Assembly (NCBI GenBank): GCA_039586575.1
Contig: JBDHKD010000005.1
Span: 6,062-70,061, forward strand
DNA from: Gemmatimonadota bacterium
Lineage (GTDB): Bacteria > Gemmatimonadota > Gemmatimonadetes > Palauibacterales > KS3-K002
Direction of reading: 5' to 3'
DNA: 64,000 nt
Each line of letters starts with the position of its first letter. Within the stretch, counting starts at the first letter, position 1. The position numbers and the translations under genes were made by a program. Below are positions 9,535-16,895 of the stretch, piece by piece. The notes under the pieces were generated by a model. That model ran no database searches. It saw only the letters and a list, made by a program, of their open reading frames with translations, and was not told where the DNA came from.

Positions 9535-9867
9535 CTAGTCCAACACTACGTCCAGGTCCGCAACCAACTCCGGACGGTGACGCGCGATCCACGAATGCAA
9601 CGCCCGAACCTGATTCATCGACAGCTTCTGCAGCACCTGCAACGGTAGACCCGGAATGATCGCCGCCAGCGATCGCCGCATCAGATAGTCCCGCTGCTTA
9701 CGCCGCAACGCCGACGACATCGCCGGCCCGCTCGGCGTGTCCGGTATCGGCTCCAGCAGCGTCCGGAAACTGTGGACCTGTCGATCGGAGAACTCCTCGG
9801 GGATCTGGTGACGACGGTTACCGACGAGGAAGGAACCGTCAGAGGCGACCATCAACGATCTAGCCAT
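9535..9867 (-). CDS. Hypothetical protein (110 aa)
   Basis: Single ORF with good codon usage and an upstream AT-containing regulatory region; no recognisable motifs. Confidence 0.5.
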   Translation of the reverse strand: MARSLMVASDGSFLVGNRRHQIPEEFSDRQVHSFRTLLEPIPDTPSGPAMSSALRRKQRDYLMRRSLAAIIPGLPLQVLQKLSMNQVRALHSWIARHRPELVADLDVVLD

Positions 9868-9925
9868 CCGCCTTCCTTGTGCTCACATGTGTCGAAGAGA
9901 CTCGTACCCGCCCCCGCAAAGGGCA

Positions 9926-9967
9926 GGTAGATTACAGTTTTTGTGGGTGCAACTGTAGAAATCTACC
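9926..9967. promoter_or_regulatory. Imperfect palindrome GGTAGATTACAG-N18-CTGTAGAAATCTACC, a candidate operator or hairpin upstream of the 9535-9867 gene
   Basis: Read directly from the sequence. It lies in a 140-bp intergenic region of unusually low GC for this genome. Confidence 0.35.
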
Positions 9968-10007
9968 AAAGAGCCACCAGACTGGCAACAAACTGGAAGG
10001 CCAGCAA

Positions 10008-10427
10008 CTAAGCGAGTTCTGACCGGGGGCGGGCGTCGGGGGCCTGCATGACGTACAGCGGCACACTTTTCATGTGGCGCTCGTCCACCAAGATCTCGAA
10101 GGAGTAGTCGCCGGGCTTGTGGAAGGTGATGCCGCTGAGGCCCATGATGACGTGGGGCTTGACGGGGCGGCCGGGTTCGCCGCCCGGGACCTTGAGGGGG
10201 CCTCCGGCCTTGAAGAGCTGGCCGCCATCGGCGTCCATCAGGCGGACAACGAGCTGGTGGAGGCCCTGGTCGGTGAAGTCGGCGCGGACGCGGAGCACGA
10301 AGACCATGGAGGCGTGGCGGAAGGGGAAGTCCCGAGCCCAGATGGTGTCAAAGACACCGAGGATGTTGAGCTTGCCCTCCTGGCTGACGTTGGCGGCGTC
10401 GGCGACGACGGCGAGGTCCACTTCCAT
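10008..10427 (-). CDS. Hypothetical protein (139 aa), predicted all-beta; co-transcribed downstream of the giant regulator (8-bp gap)
   Basis: ORF with good codon bias; no known motif recognised (…KLNILGVFDTIWARDFPFRH…GDYSFEILVDERHMKSVPLYV…). Confidence 0.55.
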   Translation of the reverse strand: MEVDLAVVADAANVSQEGKLNILGVFDTIWARDFPFRHASMVFVLRVRADFTDQGLHQLVVRLMDADGGQLFKAGGPLKVPGGEPGRPVKPHVIMGLSGITFHKPGDYSFEILVDERHMKSVPLYVMQAPDARPRSELA

Positions 10428-10435
10428 GCGGCTGG

Positions 10436-13400
10436 CTACTCTTGGAGTGACGCGACGAGCGAGTCGACGTTGGGCAGCGAGCCGCGATAGCCGAGGTAGC
10501 GGGCGAGACGCCGGAGCTCTGGCCAGTCGTAGGGATCGATGGTGTAGGCCACCTGAAGGTTCCCTTCACCACCGCCGCGGACGCCGATCATGCGCTGCAT
10601 GAGCGCTTGGCTGCGGAGCGCGCCGGCATCATCTCGGTACTTGTAGAACAGGTCATCGTAAGTGAGGGCGGCCTCGGACAACCGGTCGTCCCAGGCATGC
10701 CGGTCACCCAGCAGACGCAGGCGCTCGCGCTCTGTGAGGCGCTCGGCGAAGCGCCAGGCGTTCTCGAGGGCGCTGCGAGCGGACCGACGCTGGCCGTTCA
10801 TAGCATGGGCCTCGGCGAGCAGGCGGTGAGCCATGGCAAAGGTGGAGTCGATGGAAGCGGCGCGACGGGCCGCGGTGACCGCCTCGGTGTAGCGCCCGGC
10901 GAGGTAATGGATGCGCGCCTCTGCATAAGCGGTGAGGGCATCGTCCGAGGTGGACAGCACCTGGGTCGGGGGCAGGGTCGCTGCGATGTCGTCACCGGGC
11001 TCACCGAGGCGGCGACGCACCGCGCGTGTCAGGCCGGAGAGCGTCTCCAGCGTATTGGCCTCACCCGACACGGCGGCGGCAACGCCGTACAGCGTGTCGC
11101 CGACAGCATTGAACACCTGGAGTCGGACGCTGTCGACACCTTCGTGGAGGGTGACCCGGCCGGCGACCACGGCGGCGTATCCGTTGGCGGCGGCCAAGGC
11201 GAGGGCCTCTTCCATGGGCAGCGTCTCCAGCCTCCTGCCGAGTTCGCGCCGCAGCGCCACGAGCGCCCGCTCGTGCGGCACGACGTAGAAGAACCGGGCC
11301 TGGCGGAGATCGGCCTCCAACGCCAGCGACAACGCCTGGGCCGGCACGCCGTCGCTGGCCGCGCTCCGGCTCTCGCCCTCGGGGCCTTCGACTCGTACGT
11401 CGGCCACCAGCAACCACTCGCCGGACTCTTCGAGCAGCGGTCCGGAGAACATCCCGGCGATCCTCGAGACGCCGGTCTCGACAAAAGATGGCGTGCGGAT
11501 CGTCACACGGGGCAGCGAGACCCGAGGCAGCGAAGGCGTCTGCACATCGGGCAGCCGCGACGGCAGATCCTCCGTCAGCCCACGCACCATACCGATGGCG
11601 CGCGGGCCGTACACCACCGCGAGCCCGACGACGGCGAGGCCGACGGGAGCCCACCAGAAGCGCCGCAACGCGGGTCCGATGGACGGCGCTCGGCGACGAA
11701 CCCGCTTCTTACGAGGTGGCGTGACCTCAACCAGCGGGACCTCGGCGGCCGCCGCCGCGTAATCGACGGCAGGTGCTTCTTCTACCGGCGGCTCCACGAA
11801 GACCGGCGATTCGACGGGGGAGGTCGCGGGCCTGGGCGCGGGCTTGCGAGTCGGCGGCGGCCGAGCGGGCTCCTCCCAGGGCGGCGAAGCCGGCTCGAGC
11901 GGCTCGGCCTTGCCCTTTCTCTTGGCTTGCTTGGCCTCCTTGGCCCTCTCGGCTCTCTTGGCTTTCTCGCTCTGCCGGGCTGCCTTGGCTGCCGCCTTCC
12001 GGGCTCGTGTGTCGGCCTTCGCCTGCGTCTTGGCGCGTGCCTTGTCGGCACGCGACACGGCCGCCCGCTTCTTGGCCGCTCTGGCCGACCCGACCGCCGA
12101 GCGACTGCGGCCTGCCAGAGCCTTGAGCCCGCGACCTGCCAGCTGCAGGCCGATCACGGTCGCGCCGGCCAGCAGCTTGACCGCGGCGACGACCGCCTGC
12201 AGCACCGCGGTGCGCACCGGCTCCAGGTCGCTCCACCACTGCCGGAGCTGGGGTCCCCACGGCTTGCGCACCGAAGTGACCTCGTGGCGGACCCCGGTCG
12301 GGCCGACGTCGGAGTAGGCGGCCGCCGCTTTCCGCGCCTCCTTCAGCCACTCGTCGTCCTTGAGGGAGCGCTTGCGCTTCGGGGTGGTCGTCGGCCCCGG
12401 CTTGTCGGCGAGAACCGATCCGGCGGCCGGGCCGCCCGGTTTGGGCGGCGGCGGACCCGGCTTCGACGCAGGCGTTATGTCGAATTCGTCGGTCGAGGCG
12501 ATATCGACGATTTCTTTCCACGCCTCTTCCCGCTTCCCCGGTGTGTCGGGCACCGTCTTGTCCATCGGCACAGCCGAACCGGCCTGGAAACCGTCGATGG
12601 TCCCGGCGCTCGGCTTCGCCGGCTCGATGGGTGTCGGCTCTATATCGAAATCGGGAACGCTGGGGTCCGCCGGTGGTGGTGGCGGCGGTGGTGATGCGAC
12701 CCGGCGCTTGACCCCCGGCGGTAGTGGCGGCGGCTTGATCTTACCGTCGGCGATATCGCGCAGCACCTTGTGCTTCGCGACCATCTCCTTCACGAGGTCC
12801 GCCGGTTGTCCGATCCCCGACTCCTTGAGCCGCTCGATATAGTCGGCGTAGGCGCGGGCGGCATCATCGTTTTGTCCCGAATCGGCGAGCGCCCCCAGTA
12901 GGCCTGCCACCGCCTCCGGCCGCATCGGTGCTCGCGCCACCAGTACGCGCCACCAGTCCGCAGCCGACTCCCATCTTCGGCGGCGTTCCGCATCGTGAGC
13001 TGCGGCGAGCATGGCGTGGCTCCAGGCGCGCTTCAAGCGGCCGCGCTCCTTCGCCGCCCACTCGTCGAACGCTGGCGCTCCCGACTGGAATCCCTCCAAG
13101 AACTCGCCGTTGTAGAGCTCGGCCACCTGACGCGCGTGGCCGCCATCGATGGCGGTATCGACTTCCCGCGTGTCTATAGTGACGCCGCCAAACGCCTCGA
13201 TCGTTTCGGCGGTCAGCCGGACGTTGGTCCCAGGAACGTTCTCGCGCAGCCAAGTAACGGCCCGCGTCAGCGCCTCCATCTCCTTTCCATCATCCTGGCC
13301 CCGGCCCAAGAGCTCGATGACCTCGGACGGATGCATCGGGCGACGTTCGTGGAAGAGATAGATCAGGAGGGCGAGGTGTTTCGGCCCCAGCTTCGACGTC

Positions 13401-13612
13401 TCGTCAACGCCCTGGCGCACGAGCTGCACGCCACCCAGCGTGATCAGCTCGGTGGCCTTACCGCCGCCCGCGCGCGCCTTGCCGCCGCGACCGGCTTCAG
13501 ACGGTCCGCGCCCGGGGCTGTTCATGGCCGATGGTGCACAATTCTGCCTGTCTGCGGGGGAAGTCCGTGGACCCGGGGTGGCACCCCCCGTGGGGGCTCG
13601 GAAGTCCCCCAA
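10436..13612 (-). CDS. Membrane-anchored transcriptional regulator: N-terminal wHTH + BTAD (SARP-like) module, long K/A/P-rich charged linker, single TM helix, periplasmic TolB-N-like/TPR domain
   Basis: 1058 aa. N-terminus LITLGGVQLVRQG…LGPKHLALLIYLFHERRPMHPSEVIELL…AELYNGEFLEGF…FDEWAAKERGRL matches the SARP/BTAD pattern. Residues ~300-600 are low-complexity (PPPPPPP, AKKRAAVSRADKARAKTQAKAD…). TM segment FWWAPVGLAVVGLAVVYG. C-terminal helical repeats (…YLAGRYTEAVTAARRAASIDSTFAMAHRLLAEAHAMNG…). Start may be the internal Met at 13525. Confidence 0.75.
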   Translation of the reverse strand: MGDFRAPTGGATPGPRTSPADRQNCAPSAMNSPGRGPSEAGRGGKARAGGGKATELITLGGVQLVRQGVDETSKLGPKHLALLIYLFHERRPMHPSEVIELLGRGQDDGKEMEALTRAVTWLRENVPGTNVRLTAETIEAFGGVTIDTREVDTAIDGGHARQVAELYNGEFLEGFQSGAPAFDEWAAKERGRLKRAWSHAMLAAAHDAERRRRWESAADWWRVLVARAPMRPEAVAGLLGALADSGQNDDAARAYADYIERLKESGIGQPADLVKEMVAKHKVLRDIADGKIKPPPLPPGVKRRVASPPPPPPPADPSVPDFDIEPTPIEPAKPSAGTIDGFQAGSAVPMDKTVPDTPGKREEAWKEIVDIASTDEFDITPASKPGPPPPKPGGPAAGSVLADKPGPTTTPKRKRSLKDDEWLKEARKAAAAYSDVGPTGVRHEVTSVRKPWGPQLRQWWSDLEPVRTAVLQAVVAAVKLLAGATVIGLQLAGRGLKALAGRSRSAVGSARAAKKRAAVSRADKARAKTQAKADTRARKAAAKAARQSEKAKRAERAKEAKQAKRKGKAEPLEPASPPWEEPARPPPTRKPAPRPATSPVESPVFVEPPVEEAPAVDYAAAAAEVPLVEVTPPRKKRVRRRAPSIGPALRRFWWAPVGLAVVGLAVVYGPRAIGMVRGLTEDLPSRLPDVQTPSLPRVSLPRVTIRTPSFVETGVSRIAGMFSGPLLEESGEWLLVADVRVEGPEGESRSAASDGVPAQALSLALEADLRQARFFYVVPHERALVALRRELGRRLETLPMEEALALAAANGYAAVVAGRVTLHEGVDSVRLQVFNAVGDTLYGVAAAVSGEANTLETLSGLTRAVRRRLGEPGDDIAATLPPTQVLSTSDDALTAYAEARIHYLAGRYTEAVTAARRAASIDSTFAMAHRLLAEAHAMNGQRRSARSALENAWRFAERLTERERLRLLGDRHAWDDRLSEAALTYDDLFYKYRDDAGALRSQALMQRMIGVRGGGEGNLQVAYTIDPYDWPELRRLARYLGYRGSLPNVDSLVASLQE

Positions 13613-13845
13613 GTATAAGCAATCAAACCCGTTCTCGCTATCGTGCGGACCGCCCCGGCGCCGACTTCGGCCGCACCCGGGCTCCCGACCGGTCTCCCGG
13701 AACTTGAAGCCAGGCGCGCGGTTCCGCCGCCCTCTTGGAGAAGCGTCAAGACTTTCTTACCATAACCTGGTGCGTCTGTTCCGGTTAGAGCGCAGCGGCC
13801 CGGTGCCGCGCCCCGACTCTACACACATAAGCCAGCCGAGACATC

Positions 13846-14439: not shown

Positions 14440-15567
14440 TCAACGCACCGCCGCCTCCGCGTCCGCCAAGACGCGGAGTATGTTGCCACCCAAGATCTTC
14501 TCCACTTCCGCATCGCCGTAACCGCGGCGTAGCAGCTCCTCGGTGATCGCCGGGTACTTCGAGACATCTTCCAGACCCTCGGGCGTCAGCGGCACACCGT
14601 CGAAGTCGGAACCGAGCCCGACGTGATCCGCCCCCACCGTCCGAACGATATGGTCGATGTGATCGACCAGGTGGGCCACGGTCCCGCGCGGTATCGGACT
14701 GCTCGCCCACCACTCCTTCCAAGCTCGCTCCACCGCAGCGTCGTCGTCCCCGAACTTGGCGCGCAGCTCGTGCTCCAGCTGGAACATGTTGCGGACGACG
14801 GGTGCCGCCTCCGGCACGACGAAGCCCGAGAAGAAGTTCACCATCACCATGCCGCCGCCCGCCGCGATCTCTCGCAGTGTCCCGTCCGCTATGTTCCGAG
14901 CATGATCGTTGACAGCGCGCGCCCCACTGTGCGAAGCGATAATCGGCGCCCGGCTCACACGCAGCACATGCATCATCGCCGCGTCAGACACGTGCGAGAT
15001 GTCGACCAGCATGCCCTGCCGGTTCATCTCGCGCACCACCTCTTCGCCGAACCCGCTCAGTCCCCCGTGCCGGGGCTCATCGGTCGCCGAGTCCGCCCAG
15101 GCGTTGGTGGTGGAGTGCGTCAGGGTCATGTAGCGCACGCCCAGCTCGCGGAACCTGCGCAGCGTGTCGAGTGAGTTCTCGATCGCGTGCCCGCCCTCGA
15201 CCGCCATCAGGATGGCGACCTTCCCCGTTCCGGCGATCCGACGGACATCCGCCGCCGTGACGGCCAGCTCCAGCTCCGCGTAGGTCCTTATCGCCTGTTG
15301 GATAACGTCGATCAGCTCGAGGGCGACGCGATCGGCACCACGACCTTCATACGATGAGGGCACGTAGGCGGCCAGGAACTGGGCATCGATTCCGCCCTCA
15401 CGCAACCGGGGGATGTCGGTGTGGCCGCTCTCCTGGCGCGTCGCGAGATCGAATCGCCCGAGGTCGGAATCGAACTCGGCGCGCAGCCGCCACGGGAGGT
15501 CGTTGTGGCCGTCGATCACCAGCGCCCGTTCGTGCAGCGCCGCTGCTCTCTCGCTGATTGTCGGCAC
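14440..15567 (-). CDS. Membrane dipeptidase (peptidase family M19)
   Basis: 375 aa; LVIDGHNDLPW…MTLTHSTTNAWADS…VDISHVSD…SHSGARAV…LGSDFDG motifs diagnostic of renal-type dipeptidase. Confidence 0.9.
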   Translation of the reverse strand: MPTISERAAALHERALVIDGHNDLPWRLRAEFDSDLGRFDLATRQESGHTDIPRLREGGIDAQFLAAYVPSSYEGRGADRVALELIDVIQQAIRTYAELELAVTAADVRRIAGTGKVAILMAVEGGHAIENSLDTLRRFRELGVRYMTLTHSTTNAWADSATDEPRHGGLSGFGEEVVREMNRQGMLVDISHVSDAAMMHVLRVSRAPIIASHSGARAVNDHARNIADGTLREIAAGGGMVMVNFFSGFVVPEAAPVVRNMFQLEHELRAKFGDDDAAVERAWKEWWASSPIPRGTVAHLVDHIDHIVRTVGADHVGLGSDFDGVPLTPEGLEDVSKYPAITEELLRRGYGDAEVEKILGGNILRVLADAEAAVR

Positions 15568-16895
15568 TACTCTCCGATCGCCTTTCTAATCAGCTCATCC
15601 AATTCCTCCGGCTCAGCCGGTGCGAGGTCGTAGGTGACGCGCACCGTCGGCTTGTCGATATCGATGAGTCGGGCCAGATCGATGGGTGTGCCGATGACGA
15701 CGACTTCGGCGTCCGAGTTGCGGATCGTCTCCGCCAGTTCGTCGATCTGCTCGTCGCTATAGCCCATCGCCGGCAGCACGGGTCCGGTGGCCGAGTACTT
15801 CTCGAACGTCTCGACGATCGAGCCGACGGCGAAGGGCCGCGGGTCGACCAGCTCCTTGGCGCCGTGCGCCTGTGCAGCGAGGCTCGCCGCGCCTAGCCGC
15901 AACTCGCCGTGCGTGAGGCTCGGCCCGTCTTCAACCGCCAGCACCCGCTTCCCCTTCAGAGCCTCGGGGTCCGCCACGCTCAGCGGCGAGCGTGCGGCGA
16001 AGACGCGCGCTCTCGGGTTGGCCATCGCGATGTTGCGGCGCACGGTCTCGACGTCCTCGGCGGAGGCCGACCCGACTTTGTTGATGATGACCGCATCCGC
16101 CATGCGCAGGTTGGCCTCGCCCGGGTGATAATTCAACTCGTGCCCGGGCCGAAACGGATCGGCGACGACGATGTGCAGGTTCGGGCGATAGAACGGCAAG
16201 TCATTGTTGCCGCCGTCCCAGAGAACGACATCTCCATCGTTTTCCGCCGCGCGCAGGATGGCCTCGTAGTCTACACCGGCGTAGACGATCGTACCGCTCT
16301 TCAGGTGCGACTCATACTCCTCGCGCTCCTCGATGGTCGCATCGTGGCGCTCCAGGTCGGCGTACGTTTCGTACCGCTGCACGCGCTGCTTCGCCAGATC
16401 ACCGTACGGCATCGGGTGACGAACCACGACCGGCTTGCGACCCAGCCGGCGCAGCCGCTCGACCACGTAACGCGTCGTCTGGCTCTTGCCGGCGCCGGTC
16501 CGCACGGCGCAGACGGCGATCACCGGGTGCTTCGAATCCAGTTGCGTCTGCCGCGGCCCGAGCAGCATGAAACCGGCTCCCGCGGCGAGGCAGCGGCTGG
16601 CCAGGTGCATGACATGCTGGTGCGATACGTCGGAGTACGAGAAGGTGCAGAAATCGACGGACTCATCTCTGACTATCTCTTCCAACTCTTCTTCCGACAG
16701 GATCGGCACGCCGTCAGGGTAGTCGGCGCCGGCGATGGCCGCCGGGTAGAGCCGATCCTCGATGTTCGGTATCTGGGTCGCCGTGAAGGCGACGACCTTA
16801 TAGTCGGGGTTGCCCCGGAAATAGGTGTTGAAATCATGGAAATCGCGCCCGGCGGCGCCCAGGATGATGACTCGTGGTCGTCCTTTGTCTGGCAT
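15567..16895 (-). CDS. P-loop NTPase, cyclic 2,3-diphosphoglycerate synthetase-like (CPGS family) protein
   Basis: 442 aa; Walker A AVRTGAGKSQTT; overall size and layout resemble archaeal/bacterial CPGS-family proteins. The family assignment is from memory only. Confidence 0.55.
   Translation of the reverse strand: MPDKGRPRVIILGAAGRDFHDFNTYFRGNPDYKVVAFTATQIPNIEDRLYPAAIAGADYPDGVPILSEEELEEIVRDESVDFCTFSYSDVSHQHVMHLASRCLAAGAGFMLLGPRQTQLDSKHPVIAVCAVRTGAGKSQTTRYVVERLRRLGRKPVVVRHPMPYGDLAKQRVQRYETYADLERHDATIEEREEYESHLKSGTIVYAGVDYEAILRAAENDGDVVLWDGGNNDLPFYRPNLHIVVADPFRPGHELNYHPGEANLRMADAVIINKVGSASAEDVETVRRNIAMANPRARVFAARSPLSVADPEALKGKRVLAVEDGPSLTHGELRLGAASLAAQAHGAKELVDPRPFAVGSIVETFEKYSATGPVLPAMGYSDEQIDELAETIRNSDAEVVVIGTPIDLARLIDIDKPTVRVTYDLAPAEPEELDELIRKAIGE

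Follow-up and report, generated by a model that had tools for sequence, protein, structure and literature searches.

Introduction

ToxR-like receptors combine a periplasmic sensor, a single transmembrane (TM) helix and a cytoplasmic OmpR-type DNA-binding domain; they dimerise, and their linker is disordered but required (PMC5430869). In CadC this tether is about 50 aa long (residues 108-158), as delimited by CadC1-107 and CadC1-159 (PMC5430869). These receptors are the simplest known transmembrane signalling devices, and work on them has hardly gone beyond a few Gammaproteobacteria, where CadC, ToxR, TcpP and PsaE all carry a bare OmpR-type head. The SARPs (AfsR, EmbR, and the DnrI/ActII-ORF4 type), in contrast, begin with a winged helix-turn-helix (wHTH) domain directly followed by a BTAD domain, and have been studied in Actinomycetota as soluble proteins that activate antibiotic production; classical members are cytoplasmic and often pathway-specific within biosynthetic clusters. 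Here we describe REG, a regulator gene in a 64-kb stretch (hereafter the window; GC ~67%) of contig JBDHKD010000005.1 from a Gemmatimonadota bacterium, together with the two small genes downstream of it. In REG, a SARP head (wHTH and BTAD) is joined to a CadC-like, putatively periplasmic sensor, and this in a phylum where experimental genetics hardly exists. We consider it fairly probable that the REG product acts as a one-component transcription activator integrated in the membrane, a counterpart of ToxR and CadC with a SARP head. An earlier note, made from the letters of this stretch, had proposed the same ToxR/CadC-like logic, which the domain order, the universal TM helix and the CadC-like fold of the sensor reported here all support.

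The REG gene and its start

As expected from the earlier note, three minus-strand open reading frames (ORFs) are present, at 10436..13612 (REG; 1058 aa from a TTG codon), 10008..10427 (139 aa) and 9535..9867 (110 aa), with a gap of 8 bp between the REG stop codon and the ATG of the 139-aa gene. Among 5.8 billion proteins searched, 46 are full-length REG homologues of 1000-1290 aa, all from Gemmatimonadota, and a 1029-aa copy that is 99% identical and has the same 8-bp gap to a DUF6941 gene occurs in three independent sequencing runs and assemblies. Because full-length homologues and this copy exist, REG is by every comparison made a genuine minus-strand gene, neither a chance ORF nor a fusion artefact, which settles the earlier worry that two genes might have been joined by a sequencing error. 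Long antisense shadow ORFs are common at the GC content of the window, and a 695-aa plus-strand ORF antisense to REG (10607..12694) was likewise rejected as a gene on its nonsense composition rich in Arg, Gly and Pro.

The length of 1058 aa first given for the protein does need correction. The TTG at 13612 (13612-13610) shares the last base of a -10 hexamer, TATACT (13617-13612), and since it thus sits in the gene's own conserved -10 box, the ATG at 13525 is almost certainly the start; all homologues and independent gene calls also begin there. The coding sequence accordingly spans 10436..13525 on the minus strand, stop codon included, and encodes 1029 aa. Residue numbers below refer to this protein unless stated otherwise.

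Domain architecture of REG

We modeled REG with AlphaFold2 (AF2) on the basis of 44 homologues, and the model is confident at both ends. Residues 23-270 form two strands, three helices and a wing hairpin followed by a helical bundle, in the order typical of OmpR/PhoB-type domains. The predicted wHTH domain (residues 23-117; 13175..13459, minus strand; block-mean predicted local distance difference test score (pLDDT) 78-96) has strands at 25-28 and 34-37, helices at 48-60, 66-73 and 79-96, and the wing at 101-112. The bundle behind it (residues 118-262; 12740..13174, minus strand; pLDDT >90) is a BTAD domain also at the sequence level: Pfam PF03704 matches residues 131-238 with 35.7 bits against a cut-off of 22.1, and it matches 43 of the 44 family members. 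The best Foldseek matches in the PDB are to the SARP domain of AfsR in RNA-polymerase transcription-initiation complexes (8k60 and 8hvr; E ~1e-6, 252-258 columns), the top one reaching an E value of 6e-7 over 258 columns with a TM-score on target of 0.53; EmbR (2ff4, 2fez) comes next, the SARP fold matches together covering ~250-275 columns. Query coordinates for these matches (SARP to 23-270, and CadC and LpoB, discussed below, to 700-1029) were assigned by inference from target lengths and the domain boundaries of the model. REG is thus a SARP by its BTAD sequence and by its fold, and it does not fit the Trans_reg_C sequence model; of the SARP-like N terminus proposed earlier, the BTAD and the AfsR/EmbR-like fold stand, while the OmpR-type wHTH does not stand at the sequence level.

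At the other end, the confident part of the model (700-1029) consists of an alpha/beta unit followed by paired helices. We divide it into an alpha/beta subdomain of the LpoB, LpoP, FlgO or TolB-N type (residues 696-842; 11000..11440, minus strand) and a TPR-like helical subdomain (residues 843-1029; 10439..10999, minus strand). Taken together, the two resemble the whole periplasmic domain of CadC (3ly7, 3ly8, 3ly9 and 3lya; ~360 columns, TM-score on target 0.55-0.58), while the C-terminal domain of LpoB matches with an E value of 1.4e-4, ranked after EmbR, and LpoP domains and TPR proteins, including designed ones, also match. LpoB and LpoP are outer-membrane lipoproteins that bind and activate the peptidoglycan synthase PBP1B; in REG their fold opens the sensor, as its first half, and the fusion partner is a putative transcription factor. 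Sequence models add a partial NCBIfam match to the sensor part of the cyclase family TIGR04510 (residues 758-998 in the 1058-aa numbering) and weak, sub-threshold Pfam TPR matches. The TolB-N-like/TPR domain named in the earlier note is therefore borne out by the fold matches as an extracytoplasmic TolB-N/LpoB-like unit with TPRs, and REG, like the ToxR-like receptors, carries its predicted periplasmic sensor at the C terminus.

Between head and sensor, all 44 aligned homologues have a TM helix, which in REG reads FWWAPVGLAVVGLAVVYGP (residues 623-641). With the basic juxtamembrane patch PPRKKRVRRR in front of it, it occupies residues 613-645 (11591..11689, minus strand), and AF2 builds a helix at 626-638. 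Its mean Eisenberg hydrophobicity <H> is 0.78 with a hydrophobic moment of 0.02, and it is flanked by nine Lys or Arg residues on the N side and three on the C side, a bias shared by most of the family. The protein lacks a signal peptide, and on this and on the distribution of Lys and Arg around the helix we take the head to be probably cytoplasmic. A topology with one span, N terminus in and C terminus out, is what we infer from the relatives described below, in which the same sensor module follows a single TM-like segment both behind BTAD heads and behind cytoplasmic kinase or cyclase domains. The possibility raised earlier that the wHTH might lie outside the cytoplasm is disfavoured by the same charge bias and by the architecture of these relatives. 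The earlier claim of a single TM helix holds insofar as one helix is universal in the family; it had overlooked a second hydrophobic helix, present in the close clade, so that REG has two hydrophobic segments rather than one.

The tether that links the end of BTAD (residue 262) to the TM helix (residue 623) is ~360 aa long and mostly disordered. Its first part is a proline-rich linker, presumably cytoplasmic (residues 263-410; 12296..12739, minus strand; 22% Pro, pLDDT <50), with the PPPPPPP runs already seen in the translation; AF2 finds no structure at 273-420 apart from a short low-confidence helix at 392-402. It is followed by a W-rich motif, VRHEVTSVRKPWGPxLRxxW, that is conserved in the REG family, and by the first of the two hydrophobic helices, AVLQAVVAAVKLLAGATVIGLQLAG (together residues 411-465; 12131..12295, minus strand), which alignment, hydropathy and a moderately confident part of the model (424-463, with helices at 424-433 and 435-463 and block-mean pLDDT ~69-79) delineate. 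A segment rich in Lys, Ala, Arg and Glu (residues 481-536; 11918..12085, minus strand) is modeled as one long helix and gives way to a second proline-rich disordered linker (residues 537-612; 11690..11917, minus strand; pLDDT <50), AF2 finding no structure at 538-618.

Mean identity to the window protein across the family follows this architecture closely. It is 67% for the wHTH, the highest of all regions, 64% for BTAD, 55% for the alpha/beta subdomain and 64% for the TPR subdomain, falling to 36% for the W-rich motif and its helix and to 17-25% for the three low-complexity stretches (25% in the first proline-rich linker, 17% in the Lys/Ala-rich stretch and 23% in the second proline-rich linker). 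Conserved ends with a drifting tether are the pattern expected of two functional ends joined by a spacer.

Relatives of REG

REG does not stand alone. In an exhaustive HMMER search of 1.84 billion representatives, 18,031 sequences matched at E<=1e-3 and 6,092 at E<=1e-10, and those outside REG's own family hit the sensor module (profile positions ~740-1010). Among the 100 best non-family matches, 53 carry a BTAD head according to a family-specific hidden Markov model, and a TM-like segment lies between BTAD and the alpha/beta subdomain in 48 of the 51 that have both; the cytoplasmic linker of these BTAD-headed relatives has a median length of 69 aa (range 39-433). The other 45, judged from their first 70 residues rather than by a domain scan, mostly have N termini of the Ser/Thr-kinase type, a few of the cyclase type, and others just a TM-like N terminus. 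Ser/Thr kinases and adenylate cyclases (TIGR04510-like) share REG's alpha/beta and TPR module behind a TM segment and differ in the output domain. A word-index search for homologues of the C-terminal 380 aa, by comparison, returned only fragments of REG's own family.

The closest architecture is a BTAD-TM-(LpoB/FlgO-like)-TPR class of ~900-980 aa (for example MEO7367758.1 and HEX5072733.1 from Gemmatimonadaceae), which has a SARP head, a P-rich linker, one TM segment, an LpoB/FlgO-like domain and TPRs, as REG does; homology to REG can be detected in the head as well as in the sensor. Its P-rich linker is typically ~40-140 aa long, as against ~360 aa in REG, and it has many more TPRs after the sensor core. 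The REG family, a separate group of 46 full-length homologues, is further set apart by a conserved W-rich motif with its helix and by a C-terminal end of its own. Annotation pipelines already name such BTAD-headed relatives "BTAD domain-containing putative transcriptional regulator" or "SARP family transcriptional activator/TolB-like protein", so that REG, taken as a single gene, is no surprise. In the literature on membrane-bound SARPs, Gemmatimonadota SARPs, COG5616 and DUF6941 we found nothing relevant and no experimental work on the BTAD-TM-sensor class. By sequence, then, REG belongs to a subfamily with a long tether (~360 aa) within a large class that databases annotate and that, so far as the literature searched shows, is experimentally uncharacterised. 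The family was found at 22 genome loci, all in Gemmatimonadota metagenome-assembled genomes, one of which is Candidatus Kutchimonas denitrificans of the order Candidatus Palauibacterales. As a natural experiment, this long-linker subfamily could show how long a tether a membrane-bound transcription factor tolerates.

Proposed mechanism and alternative readings

The analysis shows which folds the domains adopt and in what order they stand, how conservation is distributed, and that kinases and cyclases share the sensor module; from this a way of working can be proposed. Judging by CadC, the sensor would likely respond to a periplasmic cue by altering its conformation or its oligomeric state; as it has TPR and LpoB-like folds, this cue is probably a protein or peptide, or the state of the envelope. 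The response would be relayed along the TM helix and the tether to the cytoplasmic SARP heads, two of which, if the protein dimerises as we suppose, may bind repeats near the -35 region of a target promoter and recruit RNA polymerase, as AfsR does. REG would thus probably work in the manner of a ToxR or CadC receptor without being a member of the ToxR/CadC family at the sequence level. It shares 9-11% identity with CadC or ToxR in structural alignments and has no sequence match to them in PDB searches; it belongs to Gemmatimonadota rather than Gammaproteobacteria; and no LysP- or ToxS-type partner is encoded beside it in the window. From classical SARPs it would differ in its membrane anchor and extracytoplasmic sensor, and in lying among housekeeping genes.

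Several observations weigh against this proposal. Pfam Trans_reg_C has no match in the window protein at E<=1 or in any of the 44 family members at E<=0.01, and neither phmmer with the N-terminal 280 aa nor the family profile finds a solved SARP in the PDB, which means that the winged-helix assignment and the predicted DNA binding of the head are drawn from the modeled fold. The TM helix itself is modeled (626-638) with a pLDDT of only ~60, and on simple scales the first hydrophobic helix of the window protein and of its close clade ranks no lower than the TM helix (Kyte-Doolittle 2.06 vs 1.65; summed Hessa scale 3.2 vs 5.3). The tether exceeds the median linker of the wider class fivefold and the CadC linker sevenfold, and it is hard to see how a signal would be relayed along it. 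Finally, REG's neighbours are housekeeping genes in clade-wide synteny, from which no target site, regulon or ligand can be inferred.

The long tether gives some room to a release mechanism, in which REG would be an inactive precursor tethered to the membrane and a periplasmic cue would trigger cleavage in a segment with (S/T)LPxV repeats and then in or near the TM helix, freeing the SARP head and part of the tether to reach the nucleoid. The segment in question lies just outside the predicted span (residues 646-695; 11441..11590, minus strand) and could be a docking or cleavage site: it is 60% identical across the family, and AF2 finds no structure at 642-692, a combination that would suit a recognition or cleavage site. 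A tether that is long, disordered and poorly conserved also makes an unlikely conformational relay, and regulated proteolysis is established for TcpP, a member of the ToxR family. No protease gene is linked to the REG locus, however, and a W-rich motif and helix conserved inside the tether suggest that it has a function of its own. CadC and ToxR, moreover, act without release (PMC5430869). We therefore regard regulated proteolysis as unlikely.

The earlier note had also drawn attention to the basic, histone-like character of the linker and suggested that it might itself bind nucleic acid. From the W-rich motif to the TM helix the window protein has a net charge of +28 (21% Ala, 10% Lys, 13% Arg), the ~12 closest homologues range from +6 to +22, and the Lys/Ala-rich stretch is modeled as a single 55-residue helix (481-535; pLDDT 78-88), all of which would suit a clade-local, histone-H1-like clamp that holds the nucleoid through non-specific DNA or RNA contacts. 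Across the 44 proteins, however, the net charge of this segment varies between +50 and -63, about half of them having an acidic version, and the low identity given above extends to the helix; to judge from the alignment, the basic character is local to the close clade and no property of the family, and such a composition is what drifting low-complexity spacers usually show in high-GC genomes. The CadC linker, for its part, does not contact DNA (PMC5430869). A conserved role in binding nucleic acid thus finds no footing in the family, and a clamp in the window protein seems to us quite improbable.

The absence of any Trans_reg_C signal in the family and of sequence matches to solved SARPs could alternatively mean that a divergent wHTH has lost DNA binding and that REG is no transcription factor at all, serving instead as a membrane scaffold or adaptor through its BTAD and TPR surfaces. 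We hold this to be very unlikely, given that the wHTH is the most conserved part of the protein and has a confident SARP fold, and that its recognition-helix motif ALTRAVTWLRENV fits the "L...V..LR..L" pattern of BTAD-headed relatives.

There remains the first hydrophobic segment (residues 437-461). It is rich in Ala, Val and Leu and includes Lys and Gln (<H> 0.40-0.59), its C-side flank is strongly basic (~8 Lys or Arg in 30 residues), and beyond the closest ~12 homologues the equivalent helix is no longer hydrophobic and bears Glu and Arg residues; probably the segment is cytoplasmic or peripheral to the membrane and does not span it. An arrangement in which both helices cross the membrane, leaving the Lys/Ala-rich helix periplasmic like domain II of TolA and the LpoB-like/TPR domain cytoplasmic in a hairpin-anchored SARP-TPR regulator, could appeal to the Kyte-Doolittle value of the first segment, to the weak compositional match of the linker profile to TolA (E 0.05 in a PDB sequence search, the sole structural "relative" of the Lys/Ala-rich stretch) and to the existence of large cytoplasmic SARPs with C-terminal TPRs such as AfsR, but it is highly improbable given the Glu or Arg residues in most members (summed Hessa values 8-16) in a family whose topology would normally be conserved, a basic flank that disfavours an N-in/C-out orientation of that helix, an <H> below that of the TM helix, a C-terminal fold that matches periplasmic proteins (the CadC periplasmic domain, LpoB and LpoP), and the kinase and cyclase fusions, in which one TM segment precedes the same module.

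Upstream region of REG

An alignment of 14 orthologous upstream regions places a putative REG promoter at 13612..13642 on the minus strand, with GATAGCG / TAGCGA in the -35 region, a 17-nt spacer and the -10 hexamer TATACT described above. The hexamer, the GATAGCG element 17-19 nt upstream of it and a 5' untranslated leader of ~85 nt, which runs from the -10 region to the ATG at 13525, are kept in 13 orthologous loci. Inspection by eye revealed no direct repeats of the SARP type in the conserved regions upstream of REG and of the 110-aa gene, and the window holds no paralogues of the REG domains.

A second conserved element, GCGGAACC-N16-TTATGGTAAGA, lies at ~13733-13765, ~210 nt upstream of the REG ATG (within 13526-13845, minus strand), in the intergenic region shared with a divergent thioredoxin-like gene. 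It resembles a promoter of the extracytoplasmic-function sigma factor type (GGAAC, 16 nt, GGTAAG) on the REG strand.

Neighbouring genes

All 22 loci share one syntenic block, a 12-gene region in which the order runs HAD hydrolase, 442-aa protein, M19 dipeptidase, thioredoxin-like protein (divergent), REG, DUF6941, 110-aa gene, amidohydrolase, Sir2 and PEGA-domain protein. Because everything here is syntenic, adjacency says nothing specific about function. The 442-aa protein (15567-16895, minus strand) is 72-84% identical across the syntenic loci and has no Pfam match at E<=1e-5. For the products of REG and the two small genes downstream, the partial TIGR04510 match was the sole useful result from PADLOC, PHROGs and NCBIfam.

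One variable gene interrupts this order. Between REG and the DUF6941 gene, 10 orthologous loci (L003, at 11191-11634, and L001, L002, L006, L007, L009, L011, L017, L018 and L020) encode a protein of 147-210 aa with a signal-peptide-like N terminus, 5-8 tandem heptads RHFGP(L/I)(Q/E) and a conserved Cys-containing core, CV(L/V)RKEP(N/S)GLIRG...GCVL. The gene is absent from the window locus (10428-10435), from the rest of the 64 kb and from three other loci. Since it intervenes in those 10 loci, the 8-bp spacing in the window is, on this comparison, a local deletion state, though a reproducible one, and the slot between REG and DUF6941 is a hot spot for gene gain and loss. In two loci an extra ORF of ~275-294 aa with a signal-peptide-like N terminus lies between REG and the repeat-protein or DUF6941 genes (L011:11586-12470 and L014:4903-5730).

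The position of the RHFGP-repeat gene directly downstream of REG makes its product a candidate partner of the REG periplasmic domain, either as a ligand or as a partner of the ToxS/TcpH kind. This is a speculative idea to which we attach little weight; under it, the window strain would carry an orphan receptor, possibly locked on or off, and the tether would set the reach of the head from the membrane. Were it true, REG and the repeat protein would be a new pair of signal and receptor in a large class of SARP-headed membrane receptors that are unstudied.

The 139-aa gene downstream of REG (10008..10427, minus strand) agrees in both coordinates and fold with the all-beta protein predicted earlier, and its product can now be placed in the family DUF6941 (Pfam PF22091; 120.4 bits against a cut-off of 27, E 7.5e-35, model positions 2-124 of 125). 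AF2 models it as an all-beta sandwich with a pLDDT of 94.7; we read it as a cytoplasmic Ig-like beta-sandwich, and its fold matches are only generic. Distant DUF6941 genes (38-43% identity, on unrelated contigs) have no regulator nearby and are followed by HicA-like (71-93 aa) and HicB-like (108-127 aa) genes (L025:3795-4882, L025:6001-7023, L024:57-1058 and L023:6001-7002). This trio occurs twice in one contig (L025) and once beside transposase and integrase genes, which suggests that DUF6941 can be an accessory to HicAB toxin-antitoxin modules. Clade-wide synteny, the intervening RHFGP-repeat gene, the different neighbours of distant DUF6941 genes and the separate promoter of the 110-aa gene described below leave a functional tie between REG and the two small genes unsupported.

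The 110-aa gene (9535..9867, minus strand) appears to be an independent transcription unit. Its product shows 81% mean column identity in 13 orthologues and has no match in Pfam, NCBIfam, PADLOC or PHROGs. A resemblance to mycobacterial ribosomal protein S14 (phmmer E 0.009, ~80 residues in register) was rejected as chance, since the 13-orthologue profile has no PDB match at E<=10 and Pfam S14 does not match; nor is the 110-aa gene the small gene that follows DUF6941 in distant genomes, where the genes concerned are HicA- or HicB-like. Upstream of it lies a putative sigma-70-type promoter (9960..9988, minus strand; TTGCCA, 17 nt, and the near-consensus extended -10 TGnTAGATT), the one such match in 4.5 kb scanned against 0.2 expected by chance. 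The palindrome that the earlier note saw before this gene resolves into the -10 box TAGATT and the conserved AAACTGTAA, and is not kept as a palindrome in other loci. Rfam gave no match at the gathering threshold in the whole window, the leader of this gene included. That 5' leader (9868..9959, minus strand) comprises, in a 15-locus alignment, AAACTGTAA, a hairpin CCTGCCC..GGGCGGG, GAGTCTCTTCGACACA and an AAGGA ribosome-binding site. Promoter and ~90-nt leader are conserved in these 15 loci, and the leader is possibly a cis-regulatory RNA or an operator.

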